From Candidatus Nomurabacteria bacterium (GTDB lineage Bacteria > Patescibacteriota > Minisyncoccia > Phycocordibacterales > UBA9973), in assembly GCA_943354905.1 (NCBI GenBank), contig CALRDL010000001.1:29520-93519 (forward strand): 64,000 bases of DNA, written 5' to 3'. Positions 2,022 to 57,252 of this stretch are shown piece after piece. Position numbers and translations under genes: made by a program. The notes under the pieces are model-generated. The model had not been told where the DNA came from, did not search any database, and saw only the letters and a program-made list of their open reading frames with translations. Within the stretch, counting starts at the first letter, position 1. Every line of letters starts with the position of its first letter.

Positions 2022-3534
2022 TCCAGTAAATAGCTCGTAACCCCTCACACCCCTAAATACTCCAAAAAGAAATTATCCTGAAATCGTTGTTTCATAGACA
2101 TTAAAACTGAAAGCAGTACCGCCAGATTATCAGCCGTTCTTTTAGTCAAAGAGCCGAAAGATATTTTGCGTTTTAAGACAAGATGTCGGAGCGATCTCTC
2201 CGCTTGATTGTTAGTCAAGGGAATTCTAAGGTCAGAAAGACAAGTCAGATATTTAGAAATGTTTTTTGCGAGGGTTGTCTTAATCCGAATCAATTTCTTT
2301 GGATCAAGTCGTTTGATTTCTGAGAGTTCATTTAGTTTCAAAGAAAATTCATCATATCGTTCAATTCTTCTATCGTTTTTCAATTCATCATAAATCAAAC
2401 ATAATCTTTGGTACTCAGCCTTGCAATGCAGTCTGGTTTTTTCATCAAGCTCGCTTGATTTGGCAAGATCTCTAAACTTTCTAATCAGATGAGCGAAGCA
2501 TAATTGATGTCTACTTAACTTTCTGTAGACTCCGTAATCATCTGACACTACAAAACCGTTAAAGTCTTCTCCAACTAAGCTTTCCATATTACCTTTACCT
2601 CTTGATTCTCCCACCAGAAAAACACTTTCTTTGGATTCTCCACCACTCATCACCCAAGAGTAACTTGTATCTCCGCCAATGAATATTTTCCAGCTTGTTT
2701 CGTCCAAATGAATGACGGGTTCTCCACGTATTTTCACTTTCAATTGTTCGTAAAAAGGTCGCAGTTTGATTGCTTCTCTTTCTAATATTTTAGCGATTTC
2801 TCCTTGGGATATGTGAATTTGGTATGTGTCTTTTAGAATTTCCTGTATTTGAGAAAAAGAAAGCCTGCACATTACAGACAAGTAGCAGGTGTATTTTTGA
2901 ATATTTGAACCAAGAATGACCTTACAAGGTGGCAGTGGAATACTCGTCTGCCATTTTTTGCAATTGGAACAGTATGATTTTTCAACTACGTGTTTTGTAA
3001 CAATTTTCTTGGCAGGAATCGGAATATCTTCTTCGTAGAAAATTATCGTTTTCTTTTTGACTGTTTTCTCTCCGCAGGAACATTAATCGAGCGGATGGTG
3101 TTTGATTTCGGTTAATTCGTTTTCTTTGGGTATCAGTCTTTTATATGAATCGTTTGTTCTTGGTATTTTTTCTTTTGGAGGTGTTAAATCCTCATCATCA
3201 ATTTCTTCTTTTTTCTTTTTCTTTCCAAAAACCATTACTCGGAGCTCTTCAATTTGAAGTTTAAAGTCCTCGATGGTTTTAGACAAAGATTCATTGGTTA
3301 AGCGAAGCAGTTGGTTTTCTTCTTTTAGTAACTTGATTTCTTCTTCTAAAAATCCGACTCTTCTTTTTTGTTGCGTATGCAACCTTTCTAGATTTTGCAA
3401 ACGAATTAATCGTTTTTTAATCTCTATTTTAGACAATCCAGCCTTGGACATATCTATATATTACCATTGTTTTGTAGTGGTTTCTTTAGAGTTATCCACA
3501 TTGGGGTGTGAGGGGTTACAATAGCTCTATACAG
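2022..3534 (-). mobile_element. IS66-family insertion sequence, ~1.5 kb, with a degenerate transposase
   Basis: Terminal inverted repeats: ccagtaaatagctcgtaacccctcacacccc at 2022-2052 and ggggtgtgaggggttacaatagctctatacag at 3503-3534 share the 17-nt core ggggtgtgaggggttac in inverted orientation. The interior encodes IS66-type transposase motifs. Confidence 0.6.
2045..3451 (-). pseudogene. IS66-family transposase (TnpC-like), split into two ORFs by frame disruption
   Basis: ORF 3083-3451 is a coiled-coil leucine-zipper N-terminus. The 2882-3082 gap carries a CxxC zinc finger in another frame. ORF 2045-2881 contains HLDETSWK (the DET motif), YSWVMSG, a DDYGVY region and CFAHLIRKF (the CwAHxRRKF signature). 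Confidence 0.6.
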
Positions 3535-5305: not shown

Positions 5306-7858
5306 TTACGAAGTATTGGAATTCGATGAATTTAATTTCAAGACAATAACTTCATTAATAAGTTCTAAATCATCCATCATAGTTTGAGTAGCTCCCACTC
5401 TAGCACAAAGCATATAATCTTGCATAGATTTTACTACCCAAACTTGTGATTGAAGTCCTTTTTTGTTCAACTCATATACAATTTTACGAAATGATTCCTC
5501 GCCCCATTTATTCATTGCAAATTGCATCAAAGAAACAACTTTGGCATTGATCTGTGGTGCATAGTGGTTAATATATTCTAAAAATATATCTGGCATTAAA
5601 TCTGTATCCATCAATCCATAAGCCATTAAATAATTTACAGTTTCGACAGTGTTGAGCTCAAAAGGTAATGTGGGTTCTAGTTTATGAATACGTTCAACAA
5701 CATCACCTGATCCGGAGGTCATTAAAATATTATTAATAGGTGTCTGGCTATTGCGTATTATATCAACAAGTTCCTTTTCCCCCACCCCAATAGAATATTT
5801 TACATCAATCTTAATTGTAGTTTGATAATTATCTTTCTTGTGATATTTCCCTATTAAATCTAAAGCTTCTTCTAAAGACAAAAGGCTCTCGCCTGTGAGA
5901 TCTCCATCGACTGTACGAATGTATACATTTTTTAAATCTTCCCAAGTTTTCTCAATCGTTAGCCCGGTTGCATTTGTTGTGAGGTCTAATTTTATATCAT
6001 GAGAAACCACCCACTTACCATCCTTGGTGGGAACAACATCTATTTCAATAGTGTTTATATTTCTTTCGAGAGCTGCGAGAAAACTTGCTCGAGAATTTTC
6101 AGGGAAGCCACCAACAGTTTCGTGTATAGATATTCCACCGTGAGCGACGATGTCTGGTAGTTTTCCTTCACGTGATTCATTCTCTACTTCATTTTTATCA
6201 ACAAAAGGATCCTCTTGGTTTTTAAAAGGTTTATTAGTAAAACTCACCCATACTTTTCGCATTTGTTTAATAATTTCTTCCTTACAAATTTGCTTATTTT
6301 GTTCGTCAGCGTGATAATATTCTTCCATTAATATCTTGACGGAAATTGCAATATTGTGTTGAAATTTATCATATGCATACAAACGTTTTGCAAAGGGTTT
6401 ATCTTGGACATCTGGTTTTATAATAAAATTACATTGATTTGGTAAAGGTCGCCAATAAATATCTTCAAATTTTATTTGATCAAAATATGAACCAGTGTGT
6501 AAATCAAAACATCTAAGAGATCCGTTGGATAGCTTGACCATATTTATAGTCTGAAGTGGTAAATCAGGTTTATTATATTGCACTGGCATAATTTTAACTT
6601 CAAGCCCCAATAATTTTCCAAAAATAAAAGGAATAATGTAGTTGAGGTAACTTCTATCACCATCAAAATTAGCTCTAATATGAGTTAGAACTTCCATAAA
6701 TTCGCCTAGAATCTGGCATTCGATTTTTGTCATTTCCTCAACAGATAATTCAAAACGACTCTCAAGCATTTTTTTCCATCCCAACAGCTTAGATGACTCC
6801 TTGTCCCATTTTATAATTGCTTTCAACATATCAGAAGACTTTTTTCTCACTAATTCAGGAAAACCTAAAAATTCCTTGCTGAGTTTATTGAGTTGTATTG
6901 GTTTTGTTCTATTTCGGTCAATAATTCCTGTAGATGACATCCATTCAGGAGCTAGATCGTGTCTAATAGCTGGCAAAACTTTTGTCTCTCCACCTTTTTC
7001 AACTACCTTACTCATTTCTTCTTTCACACTAACACTGTCGACATCCTTTTCCGTTTTTACATACACAATAGCTGGTAATTGTTCTAATATAGATAGAATA
7101 TTATCGGTATTAAATGCAGAAACATGGTCAACTATATTCAGACTAGCTAACACTTGCAACCTTTCAACTAATGGGTGTATTGGACGATCTCCATTCTTGT
7201 TTTTATTTTGTAAAGATACTGAATAATCACTATTTACTAAAATTATAATAATGTCGCCTACTTTTTTAGCTTGCTCAATAAAATTTATATGTCCTTCGTG
7301 AACCACATCAAAAACACCCCCTATTACAACAACTTTTTTTCCACTAGTTTGATATTGTTGAACAAGATCTGGTAAATCTATTTCTGGTATAAATTTATCA
7401 TTAGAAATACTGTCTTGTTCATATCTATTTAAATATGGAGATTTTTTCTCTCTTCTTATTCTTTCCACAGTCACTTTATCTATTCCTTCATTTACAAAAT
7501 AGGTATTGCTATAAAGAGAAAAGGGGTTGTTTTTTAGCGTAAAATCTTCTTCTCCACTACTGTTAGTTCTAATAATACCAGAAATACATTCTATGTGAGA
7601 AATAAAATGATCCACTCTTTGGCTTTCTCTAAAATCATTCAGAGAGTTAGGATCGTGAACATTAATATAGACAGGTAGATTTTTATCAGCTAGTTTGTGT
7701 AAAAAAGTTATGAGACGCATATCTAGTTGATCCATCTTTTCTATTTCTAGATATGTTATTTCTCCTCTTTCTATTTTCAACAACGCTTCAGCTGGAGACA
7801 AATATCTTTCAGGGTTATGCCTCATAAATTCATAAATATTGTTTTGTGGATTTTCCAT
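5306..7858 (-). CDS. Multidomain protein: N-terminal cytidylyltransferase-like domain (HxGH), uncharacterised middle region, C-terminal glycerophosphodiester phosphodiesterase (GDPD) domain
   Basis: KKVVVIGGVFDVVHEGHINFIEQAKKVGD matches the GxFDxxHxGH nucleotidyltransferase motif. VAHGGISIHETVGGFPENSRASFLAALERNINTIEIDVVPTKDGKWVVSHD matches the GDPD signature. Confidence 0.6.
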   Translation of the reverse strand: MENPQNNIYEFMRHNPERYLSPAEALLKIERGEITYLEIEKMDQLDMRLITFLHKLADKNLPVYINVHDPNSLNDFRESQRVDHFISHIECISGIIRTNSSGEEDFTLKNNPFSLYSNTYFVNEGIDKVTVERIRREKKSPYLNRYEQDSISNDKFIPEIDLPDLVQQYQTSGKKVVVIGGVFDVVHEGHINFIEQAKKVGDIIIILVNSDYSVSLQNKNKNGDRPIHPLVERLQVLASLNIVDHVSAFNTDNILSILEQLPAIVYVKTEKDVDSVSVKEEMSKVVEKGGETKVLPAIRHDLAPEWMSSTGIIDRNRTKPIQLNKLSKEFLGFPELVRKKSSDMLKAIIKWDKESSKLLGWKKMLESRFELSVEEMTKIECQILGEFMEVLTHIRANFDGDRSYLNYIIPFIFGKLLGLEVKIMPVQYNKPDLPLQTINMVKLSNGSLRCFDLHTGSYFDQIKFEDIYWRPLPNQCNFIIKPDVQDKPFAKRLYAYDKFQHNIAISVKILMEEYYHADEQNKQICKEEIIKQMRKVWVSFTNKPFKNQEDPFVDKNEVENESREGKLPDIVAHGGISIHETVGGFPENSRASFLAALERNINTIEIDVVPTKDGKWVVSHDIKLDLTTNATGLTIEKTWEDLKNVYIRTVDGDLTGESLLSLEEALDLIGKYHKKDNYQTTIKIDVKYSIGVGEKELVDIIRNSQTPINNILMTSGSGDVVERIHKLEPTLPFELNTVETVNYLMAYGLMDTDLMPDIFLEYINHYAPQINAKVVSLMQFAMNKWGEESFRKIVYELNKKGLQSQVWVVKSMQDYMLCARVGATQTMMDDLELINEVIVLKLNSSNSNTS

Positions 7859-8015
7859 AGATCTTTATATTATTTATTGTATCCAATACAACCCCAACTA
7901 GAAGCAAAATAAAATAAACCGAGTAAGAATGGGCTAGCAGGTGGTGTACAGTATGCTTTTTTGTACTTTCGTCCTTCATGGCTTGATTATAACATAATAA
8001 ATTATTTGATTTCAT
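7830..8015 (-). pseudogene. Duplicated 5' fragment of the ICMT-like gene (pseudo-N-terminus)
   Basis: ...KKHTVHHLLAHSYSVYFILLLVGVVLD is about 80% identical to residues 8-40 of ORF 4778-5245. The DNA at 7880-8000 matches 5130-5250. Confidence 0.5.
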
Positions 8016-8016
8016 A

Positions 8017-8047
8017 CACGGGTGAGGGCTTTAGACTCTCACTGAGG
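8017..8047. repeat. REP-like palindrome overlapping the RAYT stop codon
   Basis: Sequence cacgggtgagggctttagactctcactgagg. Its reverse complement matches the CTCAGTGAGAG-TCTAAAGC-CTCTCACTGAG consensus. Confidence 0.6.
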
Positions 8048-8713
8048 CAATTCATCTGGCTCTTGCAATGAAGTACAGCCTCGTTCTTCTCGAATAATAG
8101 ATATTATTTCTTTGCAATGTTCTTTTAAATTATTTTTTCCTTGAAAAACTTCCAACATGCTCTGCCCTTCTTTTTTAGAAACAAAGTTAAAAAGTCCACT
8201 ATCATATTCCTTATCACTAGAAAATATAAAATGAAGCTTACTTTTCGGCATATCATGTACTAAATAATTTTGATTGACATACCCAAATGTTTTTCTAAAA
8301 TAATTATCGTTTTTAATTAATTTAGATTTAAATGTTCCTTGAAATAAAGAACCTGAACGCTTATTTTTTTCATTAAAGTAAGAAGTATACCCGCCTTGGA
8401 ATTTTTGCATAAATTTTGATATCCCACCATCTACTAATTGTTTTAAAAGAAAATGAAAATGATTTGGATTAATACAAAAAGCAACAATAGCAACAAGTGG
8501 TTCTTTCTTGATTCGCGGGTGAGGTTCTAAAGCCCTCTCTGAGATAGACTTGTAGTACATTTCTAAACTTCCTATCGCCTCAACTTGATTAAACTGTTTT
8601 ATACTTTCCTTAAAGCGTTCCAGATCTTTCAGATCACCGAAAATATCACGCTTATCTACACCTCTATTATATATATGATAATACTCCCCTGTTACGAGTG
8701 GCTCTTTTCTCAT
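8039..8713 (-). CDS. REP-associated tyrosine transposase (RAYT, IS200/IS605 Y1-transposase-like)
   Basis: YHIYNRGVDKRDIF is near the N-terminus. The HuH motif NPNHFHFLL is present, followed by the region GGYTSYFNEKNKRSGSLFQGTFKSKLIKNDNYF, which resembles the catalytic-Tyr segment of the RayT family. Confidence 0.7.
   Translation of the reverse strand: MRKEPLVTGEYYHIYNRGVDKRDIFGDLKDLERFKESIKQFNQVEAIGSLEMYYKSISERALEPHPRIKKEPLVAIVAFCINPNHFHFLLKQLVDGGISKFMQKFQGGYTSYFNEKNKRSGSLFQGTFKSKLIKNDNYFRKTFGYVNQNYLVHDMPKSKLHFIFSSDKEYDSGLFNFVSKKEGQSMLEVFQGKNNLKEHCKEIISIIREERGCTSLQEPDELPQ
8515..8552. repeat. REP-like copy inside the RAYT coding sequence
   Basis: Sequence cgcgggtgaggttctaaagccctctctgagata. 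Confidence 0.5.
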
Positions 8714-8727
8714 ATATTTAGTATATC

Positions 8728-8758
8728 ACAATGAGAGTCTAAAGCTCTCACTGAGATA
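8728..8758. repeat. REP-like palindrome upstream of the RAYT start
   Basis: Sequence acaatgagagtctaaagctctcactgagata. Confidence 0.6.
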
Positions 8759-8760
8759 CA

Positions 8761-9297
8761 TTAGATCTTTGTTATCTCATAAAAATACCTCCAAGGCTTA
8801 TTTGGTAGAGGATGTTTTGACACTTTTAATGATTCATTTTTTTGCAATGTTTGTAAAAACGGTTCGTATTCTTCATTTATGTTACCTACGCTTTCAATAA
8901 TTAATATTTTCCCATCTATTTTAATAACTCTCAATGCTTCATTCATAAAATCCTGAGTTCTTCCCTCTACCCTATCGGCATTCAAAATATTTGTAAAAGC
9001 TAATTCATCAACTGATCCATCAGGAAAGGGAAGACTTCCTGCATCTGCCCTTATAACTATAGCCTGATAATCCCCCTTCGAACTTTCAATTCCTTTCTTA
9101 ACAGTATAAGTTTTATGCCGCTCCAACTCAACAGCATAGTATTTGTCTCCTGTTTGTGGAAGTTTTCCAGCAGGTGAATTTTCATGAATACTAGGATTCT
9201 CCCCAACACCAATTTCTACAACCACTCTTTTTGGTTGTGTCTCGAGTTTATCTACTGGACCCTGCACTGATATTTTAGTTGGGCCTGATTCGTCCAT
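8761..9297 (-). CDS. Putative class I SAM-dependent methyltransferase
   Basis: VVVEIGVGENP resembles methyltransferase motif I. Length is 178 aa. No stronger signature. Confidence 0.4.
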   Translation of the reverse strand: MDESGPTKISVQGPVDKLETQPKRVVVEIGVGENPSIHENSPAGKLPQTGDKYYAVELERHKTYTVKKGIESSKGDYQAIVIRADAGSLPFPDGSVDELAFTNILNADRVEGRTQDFMNEALRVIKIDGKILIIESVGNINEEYEPFLQTLQKNESLKVSKHPLPNKPWRYFYEITKI

Positions 9298-9333
9298 ACT
9301 TCAATGCTATCATTTTATCCTTCTTGTGTAAAT

Positions 9334-9364
9334 CTAGTGAGGGTCTAAAGCGCTCACTGAAATA
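9334..9364. repeat. REP-like palindrome
   Basis: Sequence ctagtgagggtctaaagcgctcactgaaata. Confidence 0.6.
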
Positions 9365-9367
9365 TCT

Positions 9368-11977
9368 TTATTTCACTTCCCCAAAATTGTCTCCGGAGCC
9401 TGAGTGGACTATGAGCGGGATGTCGGTCTTGTATTCTAAATACGATCTCGAAAGAACCGTTTGCATAGCATTTTTAATTATCTTTTCTGCTTGGTCTAAA
9501 ACTCCTTCTTCGACTTCGTACACGAGTTCATCATGAATCTGCAAAACTAGATGCACTCTATCAAGTAGGCCAGCACTTTTCAAATCTTCATGAGAATATC
9601 TGATGGCTAGTTTAATAATGTCGGCGGTGGCTGTGCCCTGGATGGGTGCATTTGTGGCTGTACGCTCGGCCATGTTTTTCAAAAATGGAATCCTAGAATT
9701 TATATTTGGAAAATATCTCCGCCGTCCAAACAAAGTTTCCGTAAAACCATTTTTAGTGACATCAACTTTTACTTTTTCTAAATAATCTCGCACCCCAGAG
9801 AATTGATTGAAATAATTATCATAAAACTTTTGGGCTTCTTCTCTAGTTCCACCCAAATTTTTCCGCAGAGAGGAAACTCCCATACCATAAATAATTCCGA
9901 AGTTTATTACCTTAGCCTTGCGACGCATTTCGTGGTCAACTTTGTCGATAGGCACTCCAAAAACAAAAGACGCCACTCCAGAATGAATATCTTTCCCCTC
10001 TTTGAAAATCTCAGTCATTTTTTTATCTCCAGAAAGCATCGCTGCGACACGCAACTCTATCTGACTATAATCAAAAGTACAAAGCTTGTAACCCTTTTGG
10101 GCTATAAAACCTGCTCGAATCCTCTTGCCGAGCTCGGATTTTATTGGAAGATTTTGTAAGTTTGGATCGATAGAAGAAAACCTACCGGTGGTAGTAGCAT
10201 TTTGTAAAAATTTAGAATGAAGTCTATTATCTACTCCGACCATTTTTGGAATCACATCGATATATGTCGAAAGCAATTTTTGAAGTTCTCGATAAGAAAG
10301 TATTTCTGTAATAATCGGATTTTCTTCTTCAAGTTCTTCAAGAACTGAAACTTTAGTAGATAAATTTCCACTGGCTCCTTTTTTCTTGGACTTCATCCCC
10401 ATCTTCTCAAAGAGAACAACGCCTAATTGCTTCGGGGAATTAATGTTAAATTCCGTACCAGCCATTTCATATATTTTTTTGGTTAAAATATCTAGTTCAA
10501 TATGATATTCTTTTGAGAGTTTTTCAAAATATTTTTGATCGAGCATTATGCCGTGATCTTCCATCTCTTTGACTATAGGAATTATTGGATGCTCGATCTC
10601 TTCATAAACTTTTTCAAGTTTTTTTTCACTCAATTTCTTAAAAACATATTCGCGAGCTTTTTCGAAATCACTTGTATTGGCCTGCCCGACTGAATAGTCG
10701 TTCGGGCGGGAGAAATTTAAAATATCCTCCAAGCTTGGATTGGAGATATCAGAGTTCACTAGCCAGAGAGCTATGCTGGTTTCTTGAAGCTTAAGAGGAT
10801 CCGCAGGAAGACGCTCGGGAATAGCAGAATACGAATTTAGCAGAATTTTCTCGGGTCCTCGGGTCGCCCCTAGGATTCTCCGTCGGGGCTCAACCAGACC
10901 AGCTCGAAAATTCTCTAAATTCGTATTCTGCTGACTTGAAAAAAAACTTTTCAATCTTGAAAACAAAGACCTAAATTCAAAGAAATTAAATATTTGTTCA
11001 ATTTTTTTAAAATCTGCATTTTCCCAAAAAGTTTTTTCTGGAATTTTAAAATTGATCGGTGCATCTCTGCGTATTGTCGCTAAAGTTTTCGAAAAAAGTG
11101 CTTCTTCTTCGTTGTTTTTTAAAAGCTCAATCATCCGTGGACTAATACCCGCTTTTAAAAAATCTTCATCCCCGCCCGAACGACCGTCCGGTCGGGCGGG
11201 TTTTTTTAATTTTTTATAAATATCTTCGATGGTTCCAAATTTACTGATTAAAATTTCTGCAGTTTTTTCGCCTATGCCTTTGATGCCGATGATATTGTCT
11301 GACGGATCTCCGCGAAGTCCCTTGTAGTCTGGCAAAAAAACCGGTTTAAAATTAAAACGTTCTACGACTTTTTCTTCATCATACAAAATAGTGTCGTTAA
11401 TACCTTTTTTAAGAGTGTAGACTTGAACCTTTTTATCATCGATGAGTTGCATCGTATCCATATCTCCGGAAGCAATGATGATATTTATACCCCCTCCGCC
11501 CTTCGTCAAGCTCAGGGTACCTCCCCTATTTTTGGAGGGGACATAGGGGGAGGTCAAGTGGGGGCGCAATTGCGCCACTATAGTACCAAGCACATCATCC
11601 GCCTCGAAACCCGGTGCATCATAAATCGGAATATTAAAAGCTTCGAAGATTTGGCGAGAATTTTTTAGTTGCGTTATGAGAGCTTCATCGGTCTTGGCTC
11701 TCCCTTTTTTATATCCATCATAAGCCTCATGCCGAAAAGTTTTTTGTGGTAGATCATAACAAGCCACGATATAGTCTGGCTTCAAATCTACAATGATCTT
11801 CATCAACATTGTAGACAACCCATACAAAGCCCCAGTCGGCTCACCTTTAGAAGATAGAAAGTCGGGAAGGGCATGATAGGCTCGATGAATTATCGCGTGC
11901 GAATCCAAAAGGACTAAAGTTTTGGGCTGTTTACTATTTTGCTCATTTTCTTTAATTTCTTTAGTTTCTTTGGACAT
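9368..11977 (-). CDS. polA: DNA polymerase I (5'-3' exonuclease plus polymerase domains)
   Basis: 869 aa. The N-terminus LVLLDSHAIIHRAYHAL and the C-terminus ...RVHLVLQIHDELVYEV with YGMG and IIKLAI motifs fit PolA. It hosts three in-frame palindromic inserts. Confidence 0.9.
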   Translation of the reverse strand: MSKETKEIKENEQNSKQPKTLVLLDSHAIIHRAYHALPDFLSSKGEPTGALYGLSTMLMKIIVDLKPDYIVACYDLPQKTFRHEAYDGYKKGRAKTDEALITQLKNSRQIFEAFNIPIYDAPGFEADDVLGTIVAQLRPHLTSPYVPSKNRGGTLSLTKGGGGINIIIASGDMDTMQLIDDKKVQVYTLKKGINDTILYDEEKVVERFNFKPVFLPDYKGLRGDPSDNIIGIKGIGEKTAEILISKFGTIEDIYKKLKKPARPDGRSGGDEDFLKAGISPRMIELLKNNEEEALFSKTLATIRRDAPINFKIPEKTFWENADFKKIEQIFNFFEFRSLFSRLKSFFSSQQNTNLENFRAGLVEPRRRILGATRGPEKILLNSYSAIPERLPADPLKLQETSIALWLVNSDISNPSLEDILNFSRPNDYSVGQANTSDFEKAREYVFKKLSEKKLEKVYEEIEHPIIPIVKEMEDHGIMLDQKYFEKLSKEYHIELDILTKKIYEMAGTEFNINSPKQLGVVLFEKMGMKSKKKGASGNLSTKVSVLEELEEENPIITEILSYRELQKLLSTYIDVIPKMVGVDNRLHSKFLQNATTTGRFSSIDPNLQNLPIKSELGKRIRAGFIAQKGYKLCTFDYSQIELRVAAMLSGDKKMTEIFKEGKDIHSGVASFVFGVPIDKVDHEMRRKAKVINFGIIYGMGVSSLRKNLGGTREEAQKFYDNYFNQFSGVRDYLEKVKVDVTKNGFTETLFGRRRYFPNINSRIPFLKNMAERTATNAPIQGTATADIIKLAIRYSHEDLKSAGLLDRVHLVLQIHDELVYEVEEGVLDQAEKIIKNAMQTVLSRSYLEYKTDIPLIVHSGSGDNFGEVK
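10681..10710. repeat. Family A palindromic element, in frame in polA
   Basis: Sequence cctgcccgactgaatagtcgttcgggcggg. Confidence 0.6.
11171..11200. repeat. Family A palindromic element, in frame in polA
   Basis: Sequence cccgcccgaacgaccgtccggtcgggcggg, translated as KKPARPDGRSGGDE. Confidence 0.65.
11491..11577. repeat. Family B compound palindromic element, in frame in polA
   Basis: Sequence ccccctccgcccttcgtcaagctcagggtacctcccctatttttggaggggacatagggggaggtcaagtgggggcgcaattgcgcc, translated as ...PYVPSKNRGGTLSLTKGGGG... Confidence 0.65.
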
Positions 11978-14040: not shown

Positions 14041-15060
14041 ATGTCAAGTACTAAACCAAAGGAAACAAACAAAAAGACAGACGAAAGTCATTTAGACCAA
14101 ACTCTCCGTCCGAGAGCTTGGGATGAATATATTGGTCAAAAACACATCAAAGACAATCTAAAAATCCTTCTCGAAGCGGCTGAGGGTCGTGGACACATTC
14201 CTGAACATATTTTATTCTATGGACCTCCAGGTCTCGGCAAGACTACCTTGGCACACTTGATAGCCAAGGAAACCGGACGACAAATGAAAATCACTTCTGG
14301 TCCGGCTATTGAAAAAATCGGTGACCTGGCTTCGATACTGACCAACCTTTCTGTCGGAGATATTCTCTTCATCGACGAGATTCATAGATTAAATAAAATG
14401 GTGGAAGAGATTCTCTATCCAGCTATGGAGTCTGGAGTGCTCGACATCATCATAGGCAAAGGTCCTTCGGCACGGACAATCCAGCTTGACCTACCACCAT
14501 TTACACTGATCGCCGCGACGACGCGTGTAGCCATGGTATCTTCTCCCCTTCGTTCTCGTTTTTCGGGTGGAGTTTTTCGACTGGAGTTTTATTCCAACGA
14601 AGAGATTGCTCGCATAGTAGATAGATCTAGTAAACTTTTGGAAATAAGTTTTGAAAAAGATGCCCTAGAAGAAATAGCCAAGAGAAGCCGATTTACTCCG
14701 CGCACGGCAAATTATTTTTTAAAAAGAGTACGAGACTTTGCGCAAGTAAACCAAAAATCTAGCGTTAGGCAAGACCTAACGCAAAAGACAGTCAAAGATG
14801 CGCTAAATATGCTAGCCATAGATGAGATAGGACTGAATTCTTCAGATCGAAAATTTTTAGAAATACTTATTGAAAAATTTAATGGTGGACCAGTCGGACT
14901 CAAGACCATCGGCGCAGCTATGAGTGAAGAAGAAGCTACAGTGGAAGAAGTCATCGAGCCGTACCTGATCCAGCTCGGACTCCTCGAACGCACCGCTCGT
15001 GGACGGGTAGCAACAAAAAAAGCATATGAGCATCTGGGTTTTAATTTCCCCTCTCCTTAA
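14041..15060 (+). CDS. ruvB: Holliday junction branch migration ATPase RuvB
   Basis: GPPGLGKTTLAHLIA Walker A, sensor motifs, 339 aa. Confidence 0.95.
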   Translation: MSSTKPKETNKKTDESHLDQTLRPRAWDEYIGQKHIKDNLKILLEAAEGRGHIPEHILFYGPPGLGKTTLAHLIAKETGRQMKITSGPAIEKIGDLASILTNLSVGDILFIDEIHRLNKMVEEILYPAMESGVLDIIIGKGPSARTIQLDLPPFTLIAATTRVAMVSSPLRSRFSGGVFRLEFYSNEEIARIVDRSSKLLEISFEKDALEEIAKRSRFTPRTANYFLKRVRDFAQVNQKSSVRQDLTQKTVKDALNMLAIDEIGLNSSDRKFLEILIEKFNGGPVGLKTIGAAMSEEEATVEEVIEPYLIQLGLLERTARGRVATKKAYEHLGFNFPSP

Positions 15061-15136: not shown

Positions 15137-15652
15137 ATGCGAATTTTGGGAATCGATCCGGGTTTTGAACGACTTGGGATTGCTATATTAGAAAAGCCTA
15201 GCATAGGAGTTTCCTATGACTCCATAGGAAACTCCTATGCGAAACATAAAGAGAAAGTTATTTTTTCTACTTGCTTCAAAACTTCAGCTAAGTTGGAATT
15301 TTCAGAACGTTTGAAATTGATCGGTGAAGAAGTGAAAAAAGTAATTCAAGAATACAAACCAGATGTACTCTCCATCGAAACTTTATTTTTAAATACAAAT
15401 CAAAAGACAGTGATGCGGGTCGCCGAAGCACGGGGTGTATGTATTTATGAAGCCAAACTTGCAAATTTGCAAATCTTTGAGGCCACCCCACTCCAGATCA
15501 AGGTAGCCATCACTGGCTATGGACGATCTGACAAAAATCAAATAAATAAAATGGTACATATGCTCGTCGATATCGACAAAAAAACAAAATCAGACGACGA
15601 ACTAGATGCTATCGCTATCGCATTAACAGCTTTTGCACACCTAAAGTATTGA
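15137..15652 (+). CDS. ruvC: Crossover junction endodeoxyribonuclease RuvC, with an in-frame palindromic insert
   Basis: MRILGIDPGFERLGIAIL... and DAIAIALT motifs. Confidence 0.85.
   Translation: MRILGIDPGFERLGIAILEKPSIGVSYDSIGNSYAKHKEKVIFSTCFKTSAKLEFSERLKLIGEEVKKVIQEYKPDVLSIETLFLNTNQKTVMRVAEARGVCIYEAKLANLQIFEATPLQIKVAITGYGRSDKNQINKMVHMLVDIDKKTKSDDELDAIAIALTAFAHLKY
15201..15240. repeat. Family C perfect palindrome (CATAGGAGTTTCCTATG-N-CATAGGAAACTCCTATG), in frame in ruvC
   Basis: Sequence gcataggagtttcctatgactccataggaaactcctatgc, translated as SIGVSYDSIGNSYA. Confidence 0.75.
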
Positions 15653-22717: not shown

Positions 22718-22788
22718 AAACCTCACCCCCAGCCCCTCTCCTTGAAAAGGAGAGGGTGGCCCAGATTCTTCTGGGTCGGGTGAGGTTT
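22718..22788. repeat. Compound GC-rich palindromic element in the dnaA-rpmH intergenic region
   Basis: aaacctcacccccagcccctctccttgaaaaggagagggtggcccagattcttctgggtcgggtgaggttt shows nested inverted repeats. Confidence 0.55.
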
Positions 22789-46258: not shown

Positions 46259-47122
46259 TCACCTTAAAGTTTTTACAAATTCTATCCAATCTTTGAGAGT
46301 TAATTCTTCCGCTCTTTTGTTCCCTAATAACACATAGGAGTTTCCTATGCCATAGGAAACTCCTATGTGTTTGAGGTTGCCAGACAGTTTTTTGCGCTTG
46401 TGAGCGAAGCCAGCTTTGACTATTTCCCAAAATTTTTGCTCAAATTCCAGACTGTTCAAAGCTTTATTTTGAACTTCGCTCCGTCCTCCCCCTTGCGAAG
46501 GGGGAGGTGTCCTGAGTTCATCGAAGGGCGGAGGGGGTAAAGTAATGAAATTTTTTCTTGAAATATTATTTATACTGATGACTGCCGAGTCTACCTTTGG
46601 TGCAGGAGAGAAATATCTGGCTGGAACTTTCATAATAAGTTTCGGATCACCATAAGCTTTTACAGAAATAGAAAGAATACTTTCCTTGCCATCGCGAGCC
46701 ACTATTCTTTTTGCCACTTCATTTTGGACCATCAGCACCATGCTAGTAGGCTGATGTTTGTCTGTTAAAAACTTTTTCAAAATCGCTCCAGTTATATTAT
46801 ACGGAATGTTGGCGATGATTTTATATTGCGTTAGGTCTTGCCTAACGCAATCAAAGTCGAGAATATCTTCATGTACTAGTACGAGAGAACGAGACTCTAT
46901 TTCTTTTGCAAATTTATCTTTCAAAAATTCAAAAAGATCATTATCTTTTTCTACGGCTATAACTTTTGCTCCTGTTTGTAAAAGTTTCTCAGTGAGTGCG
47001 CCCTTACCAGGACCTATTTCCAAGATTACATCATCTTTTTTTATCTCTCCTGCTTTGACTATATTATTCAAGGCTGGAACCGATTTTAAGAAATTTTGTC
47101 CCAATGATTTTTTTATTTTCAT
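46259..47122 (-). CDS. rsmA: 16S rRNA (adenine1518/1519-N6)-dimethyltransferase, with two in-frame palindromic inserts near the C-terminus
   Basis: LGQNFLKS and LEIGPGKGALT motifs. Confidence 0.85.
   Translation of the reverse strand: MKIKKSLGQNFLKSVPALNNIVKAGEIKKDDVILEIGPGKGALTEKLLQTGAKVIAVEKDNDLFEFLKDKFAKEIESRSLVLVHEDILDFDCVRQDLTQYKIIANIPYNITGAILKKFLTDKHQPTSMVLMVQNEVAKRIVARDGKESILSISVKAYGDPKLIMKVPARYFSPAPKVDSAVISINNISRKNFITLPPPPFDELRTPPPSQGGGRSEVQNKALNSLEFEQKFWEIVKAGFAHKRKKLSGNLKHIGVSYGIGNSYVLLGNKRAEELTLKDWIEFVKTLR
46332..46368. repeat. Family C palindrome, in frame in rsmA
   Basis: Sequence acataggagtttcctatgccataggaaactcctatgt, translated as HIGVSYGIGNSYV. Confidence 0.7.
46482..46539. 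repeat. Family B palindromic element, in frame in rsmA
   Basis: Sequence cgtcctcccccttgcgaagggggaggtgtcctgagttcatcgaagggcggagggggta. Confidence 0.7.
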
Positions 47123-53861: not shown

Positions 53862-54005
53862 ATTTTTTTATTTAAGCTAATAAATTATTGTTTATATTAT
53901 ACACCAATTAAATATGTTTTAGATATTTGTAATACCATTATACCATAAAGATGTGCATTTTGTCAAGTATTTATTTTTAGATTTTTTAAATCAAAACGCA
54001 AAAAG

Positions 54006-54050
54006 GCCGTACGCTGGAGTTGGGAATACCAACGGCGTACGGCCTTTCGA
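54006..54050. terminator. GC-rich hairpin at the left edge of the high-GC island
   Basis: aggccgtacgctggagttgggaataccaacggcgtacggcct. Confidence 0.45.
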
Positions 54051-54106
54051 TTGATTTGGTTGATGTGTGTGCCGGCCCACGATTGTAGGTCGGCAATAAA
54101 GAACAA

Positions 54107-55141
54107 TTAAAAGGCTTCGATTTTCACCTGAGCCCCGGCTTTTTTTAGCCGGTTTTCAAGGTACTTGAGCCCCTTTTCCATCAGCGCTGGTCGTGAGACC
54201 GGGAGCGGATGGAGGTGGACAGTGAGTCCTTTCAAGTTGAGTGCGCCGATGTCGGCGATCTGGTCTAACTTTGACCAGTTCGCCTCCTCAAGAAGCTCTG
54301 GGTTTTTGTAAACCGAGGCTTCAGGAAGATTTTCGAGCCCATCTGTAAAAATGTGGAGCTTAGGACGTGAGTCCTTGTTCTCCATCATTTCTTTTAGGAT
54401 GGGCATGAGGCCACGCAGGACGGAGCTCTTGGGCTTTGCTTTCCCTTCCACTAGCCAGTCTGTGCTGGCTTTTACTTCGGCTTCCATACCAAGATTTGGA
54501 CGTTGCCGTCCCCCTTGGTAAGGGTCCTCGGAAATGTGATATAGGTTAAGCGCGATTTTGTTTTTGCCGTCAGCTCCGAGCTGTACGGCTCGGGTCTCGT
54601 CAACAATCTGACGAACCCGTTTGGCTAAGTCGTCACTGACACCCTCGGTGGTGTCGAGCGCGACTCCAAACGCCCGCTTGATCGCGACCGGGCCGGTGAA
54701 GGCCTCGATCGCTTTTGCCAATTCGGGCTGGGAGCCGGTGAGCTCTTTCCTCCGATTCGGCCGGGTCGTTTGCTCGAACTTTAGCCAGCCTTTCAGCTGG
54801 AAAATGTTCGAGGATAGGATCTTGTCACCGTCCTTTGTGACGAAGGTCAGTTTCAGTCCATACCCACCCGGCTCTTCCGGCGTGGGGCGTTCGGCGCCGT
54901 AGCGTTTGAGGCTTTTGGCGCTGAACTTCTTTGATTCTTGCAAGAAGATGTCCGTTAAGCGGACACCTTCCGTGGAAACGAGGGTGCTGGCGTCGATCGC
55001 CAACCCCCCGTCCGCTTCGACTTCCCGTTCGAAAACGAGGAAGTCTTCTTTGGGGGTGTACTTCTCCCCCCAAAGGAACATCGTGAGTCCGATCGCCGCA
55101 GCCAGTATGGCTACGGACGACAGGACCAGTTTTTTGTTCAT
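54107..55141 (-). CDS. GC-rich hypothetical exported protein, possibly vWA-like
   Basis: N-terminal anchor LVLSSVAILAAAIGLTMFLW. PKLHIFTDGLEN resembles a vWA segment. Assignment weak. Confidence 0.45.
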   Translation of the reverse strand: MNKKLVLSSVAILAAAIGLTMFLWGEKYTPKEDFLVFEREVEADGGLAIDASTLVSTEGVRLTDIFLQESKKFSAKSLKRYGAERPTPEEPGGYGLKLTFVTKDGDKILSSNIFQLKGWLKFEQTTRPNRRKELTGSQPELAKAIEAFTGPVAIKRAFGVALDTTEGVSDDLAKRVRQIVDETRAVQLGADGKNKIALNLYHISEDPYQGGRQRPNLGMEAEVKASTDWLVEGKAKPKSSVLRGLMPILKEMMENKDSRPKLHIFTDGLENLPEASVYKNPELLEEANWSKLDQIADIGALNLKGLTVHLHPLPVSRPALMEKGLKYLENRLKKAGAQVKIEAF

Positions 55142-55162
55142 TGCTTCTGTTCCTTTCCGCCC

Positions 55163-56773
55163 CTAGAACTTAGGGGCCCTCCACGCTTTTACCGGCGCGG
55201 GGGCGGGTGGTGGTGGAGGTGCGGGTTTTGCAACCTCAAGGGCCGCTTTCTCCGCCTCCGCTTTTTTTCCTGCAATCAGTTCTTCCGTGATTTTTGCAAG
55301 GGTTTTTTCCGTTTCCGCTATCGTCATGACGCGGACTGAAATGTTTTCGTTTGCCGGCGTCGTCGTGACGGCTTCCATGTCGGCGATAAGGCCGGCAGGG
55401 AGATCGATCGAGAACACCGGCTTGTTGGCGTTGAAATTGGCGACGAGTTCGTCGTCGCTTTCCGTTGAGTTGCTGGTTCTTGCCACCATTTTTTCAATGG
55501 CTTCGCCGAATTCATCGACGAACCACTTGGGTGACTGGCCGAACTCATGTGCGAGCCGGCGAATCGTGGCGATGCCGTGGTTGTGGGTCTCTTTGGCTTC
55601 TTTTGCCAGCGCGAGCTGGTGCTGGAATTCTGTGTGGTAGACATTGTAAGCGCCCTGTGCGTCCGGAGACGTGACAGTCGCTTCCAATTCCACTAACTGC
55701 TTTGCCAACGCTTCCGCCTCTACCTTCTTGGCCATGGCGGACTCGGCTTGCGGGTGGGTGGTGGTTGAAAACACCGCTTCCCAAGCGTACAATACCGCGA
55801 ACACTAACACTACACCAAACGATCCGGCGATGTCGCCAGTCTGAGTCATCATAACCCAGCGGATGCCGAGGGTTCCGAGGATAGTCATGGCCATTAGCCA
55901 GAACCACATCCTGTGCTTAAACTCCGCGTCGCCAGACAGAGTGAAAACCGAGACTGACTTACCCGTCAAGGGGTCTACCCCGTTCGGAAAAGTTTCTCTC
56001 AGTTGCTGAGTAGCGTTGCAAAGGTCGAGTTCCACCTTCATGGCGGAACCAGCGAAGTAGGTGGTTATGGATCCCGCCATGCTCACTAGGAGCGAGAAGG
56101 CGAGGGCCATCGATTGGTTTCCTTGGTCTTGAAGTATTGGTGCGTTGAACACCACTTCAAAAAACAAGGATATCGCGAATGCCGCGGTCACGGGGAGCCA
56201 AGATGCTGGTCCAGTTTCCGGAGCATTGATTGCGAGGTTTGGGTTGCCGTTGATGCCGATTGCCAACCGGCGTGCCTCAAGGAAGGCATCTTTTGCCTTG
56301 ACCTGGAGGGTGTCGATGGCGGCGAGGCCCGCCTGGGCGAAGCCTTTTAGCTTGCTGGCGAAGTCCGTGGTGAGTTGGTTGGGGTTCGGTGTTGGCACAT
56401 CCTGTGCCTGACGAACCTTTTGAATCGCGTTGCCGAGCGTCTGCTCGGCAAAGGCTTTGTATCCAGCGAAGAGATCGCTGAACATCTGGGCCACTTCTTC
56501 GAACAGAACCGATATTTGACCCGGGGCATACGTGCCCCCGAGCCCCTCTACTGCCTGGACGAGTGCTGGCATGTGCGGGGTGACGACGACCTGAGGGTCG
56601 AGGGTTACCACACTTCTAACGACGGGCTGGATGTTGTTGTTTTCGGTCACTGCGGCCGGAGCCGAGGTGCCGATTTTTAAGGACGTAGTGCCCCGTCCGG
56701 GCACCAGCTGGAGCAGTCGCCTGCTCCAGCTTTTGAGTTTTTCTCTCATTTTTTTTACCTTTTCTTTTGTCAA
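55163..56773 (-). CDS. GC-rich hypothetical membrane protein with four predicted transmembrane helices and a poly-Pro C-terminus
   Basis: 536-aa ORF with transmembrane segments at ~200-330. C-terminal PAPPPPPAPAP. Confidence 0.45.
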   Translation of the reverse strand: MTKEKVKKMREKLKSWSRRLLQLVPGRGTTSLKIGTSAPAAVTENNNIQPVVRSVVTLDPQVVVTPHMPALVQAVEGLGGTYAPGQISVLFEEVAQMFSDLFAGYKAFAEQTLGNAIQKVRQAQDVPTPNPNQLTTDFASKLKGFAQAGLAAIDTLQVKAKDAFLEARRLAIGINGNPNLAINAPETGPASWLPVTAAFAISLFFEVVFNAPILQDQGNQSMALAFSLLVSMAGSITTYFAGSAMKVELDLCNATQQLRETFPNGVDPLTGKSVSVFTLSGDAEFKHRMWFWLMAMTILGTLGIRWVMMTQTGDIAGSFGVVLVFAVLYAWEAVFSTTTHPQAESAMAKKVEAEALAKQLVELEATVTSPDAQGAYNVYHTEFQHQLALAKEAKETHNHGIATIRRLAHEFGQSPKWFVDEFGEAIEKMVARTSNSTESDDELVANFNANKPVFSIDLPAGLIADMEAVTTTPANENISVRVMTIAETEKTLAKITEELIAGKKAEAEKAALEVAKPAPPPPPAPAPVKAWRAPKF

Positions 56774-57252
56774 GTTCTGCCAAAGACTGCTGGGTTCTTC
56801 TTCCAGTCACCTTTGAAGTAGTACAAGATATTAGTACTATGAATTAACCCATATTTATAGTATAGCACTTATTTATCTAAATGTCAAGCTGAATATTGCT
56901 ATGTTTTATAAAATGTAGTGTAATAAAGACCATTGAGTTATCCCCACATTCCCTCTTTTCGATTGACTTTCGACCCTCTTTTGTTATCATATAGGAGTAC
57001 CCATACACCTAAATAAATAGGTGTTCGGGTATAGTTCTGAATAGAGGAGATGGTACAAGATGGCAGATAAGCGGACCCGACAGTAACCATCGTAAGAATC
57101 TTTTTTTACAGCACAATTTCGGTCGTACTGTATTCTAGCCTTACATTAAAAGGTCAGAAAGGAAATCTTACGGTAAATTTGTTTGTTTTATAAAAAACCT
57201 ATTTAACATATACAGTGCTACGCAGACTAAATCTTTTGCCCTAAAGGGTATT

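Follow-up and report, generated by a model that had tools for sequence, protein, structure and literature searches.

A RAYT-like Y1 HUH enzyme gene and its putative cognate palindromes in Patescibacteria

The 64-kb stretch of Candidatus Nomurabacteria DNA analysed here (the window) contains, downstream of polA, a gene resembling those of the REP-associated tyrosine transposases (RAYTs), accompanied by copies of one short palindrome; we consider it likely that this gene, present in single copy and inherited vertically, encodes a RAYT-type Y1 HUH enzyme that acts on single-stranded DNA as a nuclease/transposase and, together with a palindrome of its own, forms a RAYT/REPtron-like system of low copy number. 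The gene belongs to a large enzyme family, with at least 131 clusters at 50% identity, encountered in Patescibacteria alone; no published description of this CPR branch of the enzyme family was found, nor any paper on RAYT/REP systems in Patescibacteria. The features of the locus, including the copies of the palindrome at the promoter (U), inside the reading frame (I) and at the stop codon (D), are the following:

8021..8047: palindrome D, its loop inverted relative to U; core 8024-8040, matching GAGRGTCTAAAGCNCTC on the minus strand; one arm contains the stop codon TGA (8039-8041)
8039..8713, minus strand: RAYT-like gene, 224 aa, with ATG at 8713 and TGA at 8039-8041
8517..8543: palindrome I, a degenerate copy inside the ORF and in frame; core 8521-8537, matching GAGRGTCTAAAGCNCTC on the plus strand with 1 mismatch
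8720..8728, minus strand: extended -10 box TGaTATACT, read from the sequence, 6 nt before the ATG
8729..8753: palindrome U, directly abutting the promoter, on the coding strand CAGTGAGAG-CTTTAGA-CTCTCATTG; core 8733-8749, matching GAGRGTCTAAAGCNCTC on the plus strand
8761..9297, minus strand: methyltransferase-like ORF, 178 aa (Pfam Methyltransf_11, 24.6 bits, cut-off 21.2)
9336..9358: fourth palindrome, beginning 9 nt beyond the polA stop codon (9368-9370); core 9339-9355, matching GAGRGTCTAAAGCNCTC on the plus strand

The enzyme and its promoter

The ORF at 8039-8713 is present with the motifs that the original prediction had read in it, the strand, which had been left unstated, being minus. 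Its translation contains YYHIYNRG (residues 11-18), NPNHFHFLL (82-90) and GYVNQNY (144-150); the HuH motif corresponds to H85-F-H87, the FQ motif to residues 124-125 and the putative catalytic Tyr to Y145, while a conserved helical extension makes up the C-terminus (residues ~150-224). In a sequence alignment the HuH and FQ motifs and Y145 fall on HMH, WQ and Y115 of E. coli RayT, the last of these being the catalytic Tyr of that enzyme. None of the 138 homologues, with identities down to 33%, departs from H85, H87, Y145, N147 or N149, and the Tyr/HuH arrangement, whose loss on proper alignment had been named beforehand as an argument against the assignment, is intact. The search against Pfam Y1_Tnp (PF01797), proposed in the original prediction as a check, gave a match over residues 54-148 above the cut-off (38.9 bits, gathering score 23).

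The AF2 model obtained from the 138-sequence alignment (pLDDT 89.1, pTM 0.86) replaced one from a 20-sequence alignment, discarded at pLDDT 39.7. Its best Foldseek match in the PDB is 4ER8, that is, TnpA_REP with a REP hairpin (E 1.4e-5, TM 0.67 target-normalised), followed by the TnpA of IS608 and ISDra2; the top 11 matches at E<=1e-3 are all TnpA_REP, IS608 or ISDra2 transposases, and PDB sequence searches with the protein and its profile as queries returned nothing relevant. The evidence supports the identification of the product as a Y1 HUH enzyme with a fold closest to that of E. coli TnpA_REP. The narrower designation as a RAYT is subject to qualification: the NCBIfam equivalog REP_Tyr_transpos (NF047646) scores 35.5 bits, below its cut-off of 80, and the Y---NP signature of class-2 RAYTs (PMC6006769) is missing, the motif being YVNQNY in the window protein and YVN(K/Q)NY across the family, with Tyr in place of Pro.

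A motif of the form TGnTAnnnT begins 12-22 nt upstream of the ATG in 45/71 homologous loci, and the position of the -10 box suggests that the RAYT-like gene would be transcribed as a leaderless or near-leaderless mRNA, with a predicted start at the A of the ATG; this promoter escaped a sigma-70 scan, its -35 position being taken up by the hairpin. No terminator was found in a terminator scan, and U and D, considered as intrinsic terminators, were rejected for want of T-tracts. An Rfam scan of the window returned tRNAs only and nothing at the RAYT-like locus.

Palindromes at the locus and across the family

A scan of the 64 kb with GAGRGTCTAAAGCNCTC, allowing up to 2 mismatches, returned exactly four sites, all at the RAYT-like locus, against 0.09 expected; four sites were reached in 0/100 shuffles. 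The four palindromes originally predicted were therefore recovered in place, although the consensus with 11-bp arms by which they had been described is idealised, the actual stems being imperfect. Folded as single-stranded DNA, U forms 8/9 pairs (-7.2 kcal/mol, z -3.0), D 6/7 pairs (-2.5 kcal/mol) and I a 4-bp stem only (-2.1 kcal/mol, no better than shuffles), the fourth palindrome reaching -3.3 kcal/mol; I encodes S-E-R-A-L-E-P-H within residues ~57-66, and the AF2 model has pLDDT <50 at residues 63-66 of this region. Because its I and D copies are decayed, the window locus itself may be inactive.

The arrangement recurs in the homologous loci. The same locus-specific palindrome is present three times, at U, I and D, in 50/69 loci (46/63 when redundancy is removed), compared with 0/69 in shuffled sequences; these counts come from a GC-filtered classifier with a shuffle control, which replaced a first version that undercounted triads by choosing AT-rich low-complexity arms. 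Among the 63 non-redundant loci the U site is occupied in 50 and the I site in 49, at codons 54-66, where the model has a low-confidence loop immediately ahead of the HuH strand; D is located on the stop codon or <=10 nt from it in 41 of the 46 triad loci. The inverted orientation claimed for the flanking copies is true of the window, in that the loop of D is inverted relative to the other three, but does not hold as a family rule (28 triad loci with U and D inverted, 17 with the same orientation, of 46).

The stems vary between protein clades and agree within a locus, most palindromes being perfect with loops of 3-7 nt: 51 U hairpins comprise 30 distinct 7-nt arms, arms of the same locus share an identity of 0.81 and those of different loci one of 0.36, and 3-4 Watson-Crick pair types are in use at every position of the stem; the evidence consists of these pair types and arm identities only, percentages of stem pairing being inflated by the selection of hairpins for pairing. 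In the window clade the palindrome measures 23-25 bp, with the consensus CAGTGAGAG-TCTAAAG-CTCTCACTG; GTGAGAG, CAGATAGCGCC and TCGGGTGT are hairpin types of different clades. The hairpin foot is AGTGA in the window clade, with no conserved GT[AG]G guide; GTAG is found on both feet in some clades (L094, L097 and L098) and is absent in others. Since gene and palindrome co-vary across 63 related loci, the comparison supports regarding the palindromes as the cognate elements of the RAYT-like protein.

Beyond the locus the palindrome is scarce. The remainder of the 64-kb window contains no further GAGRGTCTAAAGCNCTC copy, an outcome that the original prediction had itself named as speaking against a RAYT/REP system, and exact copies number 1-4 per species-representative genome; a dispersed REP population of tens to hundreds of copies per genome was not found among these exact matches, nor was any REPIN/BIME population seen. 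The scan of species-representative genomes returned 25 loci, 23 of them in Patescibacteria and at least 16 without a nearby RAYT. In ~80 kb of far flanks ~1 solo copy was present, and no match was obtained in a scan of viral contigs. Some dispersed copies lie at gene 3' ends and others between genes, and some are in frame within coding sequences (atpG, purH, a glycosyltransferase-like ORF and a reverse-transcriptase-like ORF), the in-frame copies in unrelated housekeeping genes being identical over 21-25 nt; when the hairpin-bearing AtpG and PurH ORFs were aligned to solved homologues in search of a clean 8-residue insertion, both copies fell in variable loops. Partial or abutting duplicated arms were observed at several sites. 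The palindromes are not repetitive in the classical REP sense, being dispersed only at low copy in related genomes; the very low copy number, with no copy outside the locus in the window, implies that any mobilisation must be an infrequent event. Rickettsia palindromic elements, short palindromes that persist in frame in essential genes, are a case to which the CPR copies can be likened.

Among known systems the best structural match is E. coli TnpA_REP (RayT/YafM; Quentin subclass 2.2, Bertels group 2; 4ER8), whose REPtron has in common with the present system the aligned HuH, (W/F)Q and Tyr motifs, a single-copy gene, flanking hairpin-forming palindromes of its own and the co-evolution of gene and palindrome; sequence identity is however 22%, the window protein stays below the cut-off of the NCBIfam equivalog, its Y motif reads YVNQNY instead of YIxxNP, and it carries an extra C-terminal extension of ~75 residues. 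Compared with E. coli REPs, the palindromes of the window clade lack the GTAG foot, are mostly perfect with 3-7-nt loops and number a handful, not hundreds. The closest set of motifs is that of Quentin subclass 2.1 (Bertels group 1, TIRYT), with NH[YF]H, FQ, a length of ~238 aa and an added C-terminal domain; its Y motif is Y[IV]HLNP, and it has been reported to lack nearby REP-like hairpins and to possess terminal inverted repeats instead, whereas the CPR family has the hairpin triad. At one locus (L026) a canonical subclass 2.1 member (YIHLNP) lies 5 kb from the CPR-type gene. For a cognate REP in frame within the transposase gene, in a peripheral loop, the precedent is subclass 2.4 (Bertels group 4), in which symmetric, 'double-foot' REPs occur in frame inside tnpA_REP (Quentin et al. 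2018; PMC6006769) and the copy number of flanking repeats is low, about 14 (PMC5581495); here there is one insertion, at a fixed site before the HuH strand (49/63 loci) and matching U and D, the motifs are FQ and YVNxNY instead of WQ and YIxNNP, and the hosts belong to the CPR instead of the Cyanobacteria and Bacteroidetes.

Mode of action and alternative explanations

By analogy with E. coli TnpA_REP and IS608 TnpA, the protein would bind the hairpin that the palindrome forms where DNA is single-stranded (replication forks, transcription bubbles), and would cut and rejoin the strand beside it by means of Y145 and the HuH metal site; such an activity might occasionally seed new copies and keep U, I and D alike, and a hairpin beside the gene might become a hot spot for the insertion or exchange of short gene segments. 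At the promoter, U may also serve autoregulation by the protein or the protection of its gene against read-through. The identity of U, I and D could equally be kept without catalysis, whether selection maintains three binding sites or gene conversion homogenises them.

That the palindromes are instead regulatory or structural sites, either a promoter operator or gene-end hairpins terminating transcription or stabilising mRNA, and that the protein is a domesticated DNA-binding factor which no longer moves DNA, the solo copies having spread otherwise, is in our opinion unlikely, even though U adjoins the -10 box, D and many solo copies lie on or just after stop codons (including the one 9 nt past the polA stop), most palindromes are perfect, so that a dimer could read them as duplex DNA, and the helical extension at the C-terminus of the protein is conserved; in IS200, moreover, the left-end hairpin prevents read-through by terminating transcription. 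Across 138 sequences, however, the catalytic HuH and Tyr do not vary, which argues for retained chemistry; T-tract terminators were not found, the copy inside the gene has no obvious regulatory logic, and regulation alone leaves unexplained the in-frame copies in housekeeping genes and the unrelated inserts bounded by hairpins.

The gene neighbourhood bears on a second alternative, namely that the locus is an autonomous insertion sequence of the IS200/IS605 type, with the whole U-to-D segment (hairpin, tnpA, hairpin) mobile by single-strand excision and insertion. In the window the RAYT-like gene has as neighbours the methyltransferase-like ORF and a 61-aa ORF without Pfam match above cut-off; the order polA-RAYT-orf61 is kept in at least 5 genomes, and the order sigma-like gene-RAYT-DUF8128-YceG in L003 and L116, a sigma-like gene being found directly upstream of the RAYT gene in L047 too. 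This synteny, retained across genomes whose RAYT proteins are only 70-80% identical, speaks against a mobile element, as does the presence of one copy in the window and of near-identical copies in no locus examined; the gene thus appears to be single-copy and vertically inherited, its copy number having been counted within 64 kb and its synteny established in two clades. The IS200/IS605 family (IS608, ISDra2), with its transposase-less derivatives, does show the same Y1 HUH fold and likewise has subterminal hairpins that are recognised in single-stranded form, and the modelled structure matches IS608 and ISDra2 TnpA too; furthermore, the gene is bracketed exactly by hairpins from promoter to stop codon, the genomic contexts differ between distant clades, and in L114 the gene lies in the L003/L116 neighbourhood, but relocated and inverted. 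Nevertheless, the NCBIfam model transpos_IS200 (NF033573) scores 17.2 bits against a cut-off of 55, the Y---Q motif and a tnpB neighbour are absent (no TnpB-type family was matched in the Pfam listings for called genes of six homologous loci, L003, L005 and L114-L117), U and D are co-oriented in only 17/46 loci whereas IS200/IS605 ends are co-oriented, and the conserved hairpin inside the gene would split the element in two; we regard this alternative as distinctly improbable.

The original prediction went further in proposing the RAYT as the engine behind the several families of palindromic elements in the window. Other short palindrome families do occur there, some as inverted doublets and some in frame in polA, and RAYTs are, to our knowledge, the only known candidates for such dispersal of palindromes. 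These families, CATAGGA-GTT-TCCTATG, CCTCCCCCTT...AAGGGGGAGG, GCGTTAGG...CCTAACGC and CCCGCCCGA...TCGGGCGGG, have, however, no sequence in common with the RAYT palindrome and are never found at U, I or D in the ~80 RAYT loci examined, each of which has one specific palindrome, in agreement with published work that assigns to every tnpA_REP a REP family of its own (PMC6006769); with a single Y1 gene in the window, the claim is left unsupported and very improbable. As for a chance or compositional artefact, that is, similar short palindromes in AT-rich DNA beside a decayed transposase fragment, the weak stems of the window, two of the four being no more stable than shuffled sequence, would be in keeping with it, but its probability is negligible in view of the four matches against 0.09 expected, of the recurrence of the arrangement, with compensating changes in the stems, at dozens of independent loci (0/69 in shuffles), and of an intact ORF with all invariant residues present.

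The function of RAYTs and the spread of REPs have been under question since 2010, and the RAYT systems studied come from large proteobacterial genomes with REPs in the hundreds, where cause and effect are hard to separate. As a RAYT/REPtron-like association of low copy number, the CPR family would represent a minimal system, with one gene, three obligatory short perfect palindromes at fixed places and few solo copies; more than 30 natural pairs of protein and hairpin specificity can be read from sequence, and natural comparisons of empty and filled sites are available beside the gene, so that recognition rules, autoregulation and a possible capture of cassettes become directly testable. Some of the numerous short in-frame insertions in essential genes of Patescibacteria would find a concrete explanation in the system as well.

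A putative insertion slot upstream of the gene

The methyltransferase-like ORF of the window is bracketed by U and the fourth palindrome in the same orientation, the latter forming the outer boundary, and comparison with related loci suggests that it is a lineage-specific insert in a slot between polA and the RAYT-like gene. In L015/L034 this gap measures 61 nt and contains one hairpin (empty slot), the single hairpin of L015 being the same variant, GTGAGCG...CCCTCAC, as the fourth palindrome of the window; gaps of 654 nt in the window, 644 nt in L020 and 947 nt in L036 are instead enclosed by two hairpins of the same orientation, with mutually unrelated DNA between them. The methyltransferase-like inserts of the window and of L036 were considered as diverged orthologues, a possibility that was rejected (BLASTP E = 0.18, the DNA sharing the hairpins only). 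A second case of an empty slot (L047) compared with filled ones (L003 and L116) was found, and in L024 direct copies of the hairpin enclose a Phd/ParE toxin-antitoxin pair. The mobile unit of IS200/IS605 elements is likewise the segment between two co-oriented hairpins, a layout shared by the window insert, L036 and L024. Extra copies of the palindrome are located upstream of the gene in 19 cases and downstream in 3 (p = 0.0009), and the 'cassette' appearance of these arrangements is inflated by the fact that hairpins near a gene in a compact genome often fall between genes.

A tentative extension, which we hold to be possible though on the doubtful side, is a small gene-cassette system with the hairpin as its docking site. 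Genes bounded by the cognate hairpin would be excised and inserted in single-stranded form, the RAYT-like enzyme doing both, and would build up directionally on the upstream side of the enzyme gene, the copy inside that gene taking part in the same recognition or autoregulation circuit. Such a system would be a functional analogue of integrons with an HUH nuclease in place of the tyrosine recombinase. In integrons, hairpin-forming attC sites bound small promoter-less genes, toxin-antitoxin cargo among them, on one side of the enzyme gene, and the CPR inserts can be likened to these; unlike integrons, the enzyme here is a Y1 HUH nuclease and not a tyrosine recombinase of the IntI type, the arrays are short (1-3 units) and the insertions presumptive. 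The genes named as candidate cassettes comprise methyltransferases, the toxin-antitoxin pair and unknown ORFs.

The gene, its protein and its palindromes

The original prediction of a RAYT (REP-associated tyrosine transposase) at 8039-8713 with four REP-like palindromes was borne out at the sites proposed, and the strand, minus, can now be supplied; the ideal 11-bp arms were not recovered, the real stems being imperfect. Translation of the window gives an intact ORF of 224 aa on the minus strand, with YYHIYNRG, NPNHFHFLL and GYVNQNY, while a scan of the 64 kb with GAGRGTCTAAAGCNCTC (up to 2 mismatches) gave four matches, against 0.09 expected from shuffles. Three copies of the gene's own palindrome are named U, I and D among the features of the locus:

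8024-8040, minus-strand match: core of palindrome D, with the RAYT stop TGA within one arm
8521-8537, plus-strand match: core of palindrome I, in frame, codons 57-66, encoding SERALEPH
8733-8749, plus-strand match: core of palindrome U, its 3' end 15 nt ahead of the RAYT ATG on the coding strand
9339-9355, plus-strand match: core of the fourth palindrome, 9 nt past the polA stop and preceding a 178-aa methyltransferase-like ORF
8728-8720, minus strand: promoter element TGaTATACT, 6 nt from the RAYT ATG
7830-8015, minus strand: 61-aa ORF (orf61), directly past the D hairpin

The 7-nt loop of D is inverted with respect to those of the other three copies; folded as ssDNA, U reaches -7.2 kcal/mol, the fourth copy -3.3, D -2.5 and I -2.1, the last being no better than shuffles.

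The protein scores 38.9 bits with Pfam Y1_Tnp, above the gathering score of 23, and stays below the cut-offs of NCBIfam REP_Tyr_transpos (35.5 bits; cut-off 80) and IS200 (17.2 bits; cut-off 55). Its alignment to E. coli K-12 RayT is weak yet in register, pairing HFH with HMH, LFQ with IWQ and GYVNQN with DYIYIN, so that Y145 lies opposite Y115 of the E. coli protein. Across an alignment of 138 sequences, which extends to 33% identity, residues H85, H87, Y145, N147 and N149 never vary; the AlphaFold model built on this alignment (pLDDT 89.1, pTM 0.86) has a sole poorly defined stretch, residues ~50-72 (pLDDT <50 at 63-66), which is the part encoded by I. Among PDB structures Foldseek ranks 4ER8 first, TnpA_REP with a REP hairpin (E 1.4e-5, target-normalised TM 0.67), followed by the IS608, ISDra2 and IS200 transposases. 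The protein is a Y1 HUH enzyme of the RAYT type.

Homologues number 2,858 at E <= 0.001 for the window protein and 3,468 at E <= 1e-10 for a distant member from locus L108; all the named ones belong to Patescibacteria (Nomura-, Yonath-, Kaiser- and Sungbacteria, Paceibacterota, Minisyncoccia), and some are labelled 'REP element-mobilizing transposase RayT' by JGI. Clustering at 50% gave 131 clusters at E <= 1e-30, and 12,256 for the superfamily at E <= 1e-3. A literature search for RAYT/REP in Patescibacteria found no paper, its single match treating an archaeal locus.

A hairpin triad and its dispersed copies

In two homologous loci obtained by exact protein look-up, L005 and L003, hairpins occupy the same three positions as in the window; the window palindrome recurs in L005 (76% identity), and L003 (60%) has a wholly different one, CAGACAGCGCC-TTA/TAA-GGCGCTGTCTG (-14 to -16 kcal/mol), whose loop contains the TAA stop codon. 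When the comparison was generalised to 80 more loci from metagenomes, one locus-specific palindrome was found at U, I and D in nearly all of them, and the stem families track protein similarity to the query: GTGAGAG at 70-80% identity; CAGA(C/T)AGCGCC, CAGATAGAGGT, CAGAAAGGGCC and CAGATAGGGG at 58-63%; TCGGGTGT, TTCGGACGT and TGTAGACGT at 47-56%; ACTTGG(A/G)NNN at 44-46%.

A strict test, requiring a reference stem of 7 bp or more without mispairs and the same 7-nt arms elsewhere with at most 2 mismatches, detected U, I and D together in 50 of 69 complete loci and in 0 of 69 shuffled ones; with near-duplicates removed, the triad occurs in 46 of 63 loci, I in 49 and at least D in 57. Among strict-test loci the 3' end of U lies a median of 21.5 nt ahead of the ATG and I begins at codon 54-66; D is on the stop codon or within 10 nt of it in 41 of the 46 triad loci. 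Arm identity is 81% within a locus and 36% between loci, with 30 distinct 7-nt arms among 51 U hairpins and 3-4 Watson-Crick pair types per stem position; stem-pairing percentages, biased by the selection of hairpins, were left out of the evidence. The loop orientation of U relative to D is variable (inverted in 28 loci, the same in 17), and in L108 the gene contains another in-frame copy, around residue 165. The triad is therefore a character of the family and the palindrome the cognate element of the RAYT-type protein; the window locus, which fails the strict test, is a comparatively decayed example.

In 45 of 71 loci an element TGnTAnnnT begins 12-22 nt ahead of the ATG; its position in the window leaves no space for a ribosome-binding site, from which we infer a leaderless transcript, with U on that side of the promoter where the -35 region and the spacer would be. 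A check for T-tract terminators detected none.

The palindrome is also dispersed at low copy. With one genome taken per species, a scan for GTGAGRGYCTAAAGCNCTCAC gave 25 loci, 23 of them from Patescibacteria; the other two, from Pseudaeromonas and a Dehalococcoidia MAG, fit the ~4 chance matches estimated for the collection. Seven of the 25 carry the RAYT gene with hairpins at the expected places, and in at least 16 the 8-kb locus is free of Y1 genes. Solo copies are placed either at the 3' ends of genes (L018, L019, L020, L023, L027) or within long ORFs (ATP synthase gamma, PurH, a glycosyltransferase-like and a reverse-transcriptase-like ORF), where they encode (S/G)ES(L/F)(K/R)LS(L/P), sharing a frame because, on the coding strand, a single frame of the palindrome stays open with the loop in either orientation. 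Within the clade the consensus is CAGTGAGAG-TCTAAAG-CTCTCACTG, with flanks not conserved and with abutting or partial duplicated arms at several sites. Exact matches number 1-4 per genome in the species-representative scan; four 20-kb loci hold only U, I, D and one solo copy in ~80 kb, GAGRGTCTAAAGCNCTC has zero further matches beyond the RAYT locus in the 64 kb, and none of the viral contigs scanned carries the palindrome.

A variable slot upstream of a resident gene

The order polA-RAYT-orf61 is shared by the window, L020, L015/L034 and L036/L035; orf61, which has no Pfam match above cut-off, is 43-55% identical downstream of RAYT in L015, L017, L020, L034, L035 and L036. Elsewhere the order is sigma-like gene, RAYT, DUF8128, YceG (L003 and L116), and in L047 a sigma-like gene directly precedes RAYT. 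Such synteny indicates that RAYT behaves as a resident chromosomal gene. In L114 (10001-10669) its neighbours are those of L003/L116 (sigma-like gene, DUF8128, YceG, tRNA methyltransferase), with RAYT itself relocated and inverted, a hint that the hairpin-bracketed gene has moved or flipped locally.

Content of the polA-RAYT gap
L015/L034: 61 nt, single hairpin
Window: 654 nt, methyltransferase-like ORF
L020: 644 nt, small ORFs
L036: 947 nt, 270-aa Methyltransf_23 ORF

All filled gaps are bracketed by two hairpin copies in the same orientation, which are the only sequence shared by the inserts of the window, L020 and L036 (BLASTP between the methyltransferase-like proteins of the window and L036, E = 0.18). 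The empty site of L015 has the same hairpin variant, GTGAGCG...CCCTCAC, as the outer, fourth copy of the window; the inner copy, at RAYT, is the GAGAG variant. The gap after the sigma-like gene is likewise empty in L047, and holds a hairpin-bounded 284-aa ORF in L003 and an unrelated 178-aa ORF in L116; L087 has three hairpin-delimited units upstream. In L024 (5077-5758), whose 8-kb locus lacks RAYT, a Phd/YefM-ParE toxin-antitoxin pair is flanked on each side by one direct copy of the window-type palindrome, the two copies sharing 23 nt. Over equal scanned lengths, extra copies number 19 upstream (13 loci) and 3 downstream (2 loci), an excess with p = 0.0009 by copies and 0.008 by loci. The site upstream of RAYT is a variable hairpin-bounded slot.

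Mechanism, known systems and other elements

By analogy with TnpA_REP and IS608 TnpA, whose action is summarised in PMC6006769, the protein would recognise the hairpin on single-stranded DNA and cut and rejoin DNA at its foot; this would seed new copies, homogenise U, I and D, and mediate insertion or exchange at the hairpin, while U may add autoregulation or insulation of the gene. That the whole constitutes an HUH-based cassette system at the hairpin slot is rather unlikely. Among the rivals weighed, all judged improbable, an autonomous IS would fit the IS200-type structural relatives and has to be set against the conserved gene order; purely regulatory palindromes would fit U at the promoter and have to be set against the in-gene and solo copies; a general engine for all palindromes of the window has to be set against the unrelated sequences of the other families; chance is dismissed by the shuffles.

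By its motif set (NHFH / FQ / Y---NY), length and C-terminal extension the window RAYT comes closest to the proteins of subclass 2.1 in Quentin et al. 2018 (PMC6006769; NH[YF]H, FQ, Y[IV]HLNP), differing from class 2 in that the Pro of the Y motif is replaced. For subclass 2.4, REPs lying in frame within tnpA_REP and symmetric 'double-foot' REPs have been described (PMC6006769), as have low flanking-repeat counts for groups 1 and 4 (PMC5581495), so that this kind of system is known. New are the phylum-specific branch with a deviant Y motif, the fixed three-site architecture with an obligatory in-gene copy ahead of the HuH strand, the concerted stem turnover over at least 30 types, the placing of U at the promoter and D at the stop codon, and the insert slot upstream of the gene.

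One genome (L026) has two Y1 genes 5 kb apart, 1548-1964 and 6692-7354, one of the CPR type with the hairpin triad and the other canonical (YIHLNP, subclass-2.1-like), near which no hairpin of at least 8 bp was found. The window polA (9368-11977, minus) contains lineage-specific, GC-rich in-frame inserts at 11483-11566, 11159-11209, 10838-10906 and 10670-10717, which are missing from the L015 and L020 orthologues or differ there; at least three are palindromic (CCTCCCC...GGGGAGG type, and CCCGCCCGA...TCGGGCGGG twice), of families other than the RAYT-cognate one. The hairpin CATAGGA-GTT-TCCTATG has five copies in the window (15201-15240, 46329-46371, 63094-63112), four of them forming two inverted, REPIN-like doublets; it is also present in L031 and L104, at a distance from the RAYT sites there, and the window holds no Y1 gene matching it. 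Two further families are CCTCCCCCTT-NNN-AAGGGGGAGG (627-649, 46485-46507, 22734-22756; also in L005, L020 within polA, L029, L030, L045, L102 and L116) and GCGTTAGG-5nt-CCTAACGC, with two window copies of inverted loop (14762-14782, 46825-46851). At 54001-58000 the G+C is 0.55 then 0.45, against 0.29-0.41 elsewhere, with no rRNA found by Rfam and a tRNA cluster following at 59.1-60.2 kb; the stretch is possibly foreign DNA or unusual in some other way. The ORF at ~2045-2872 (minus; 7838-8665 of L001), some 5 kb from the RAYT locus, has a precomputed Pfam DDE_Tnp_IS66 match, suggesting an IS66-family transposase, whole or fragmentary.
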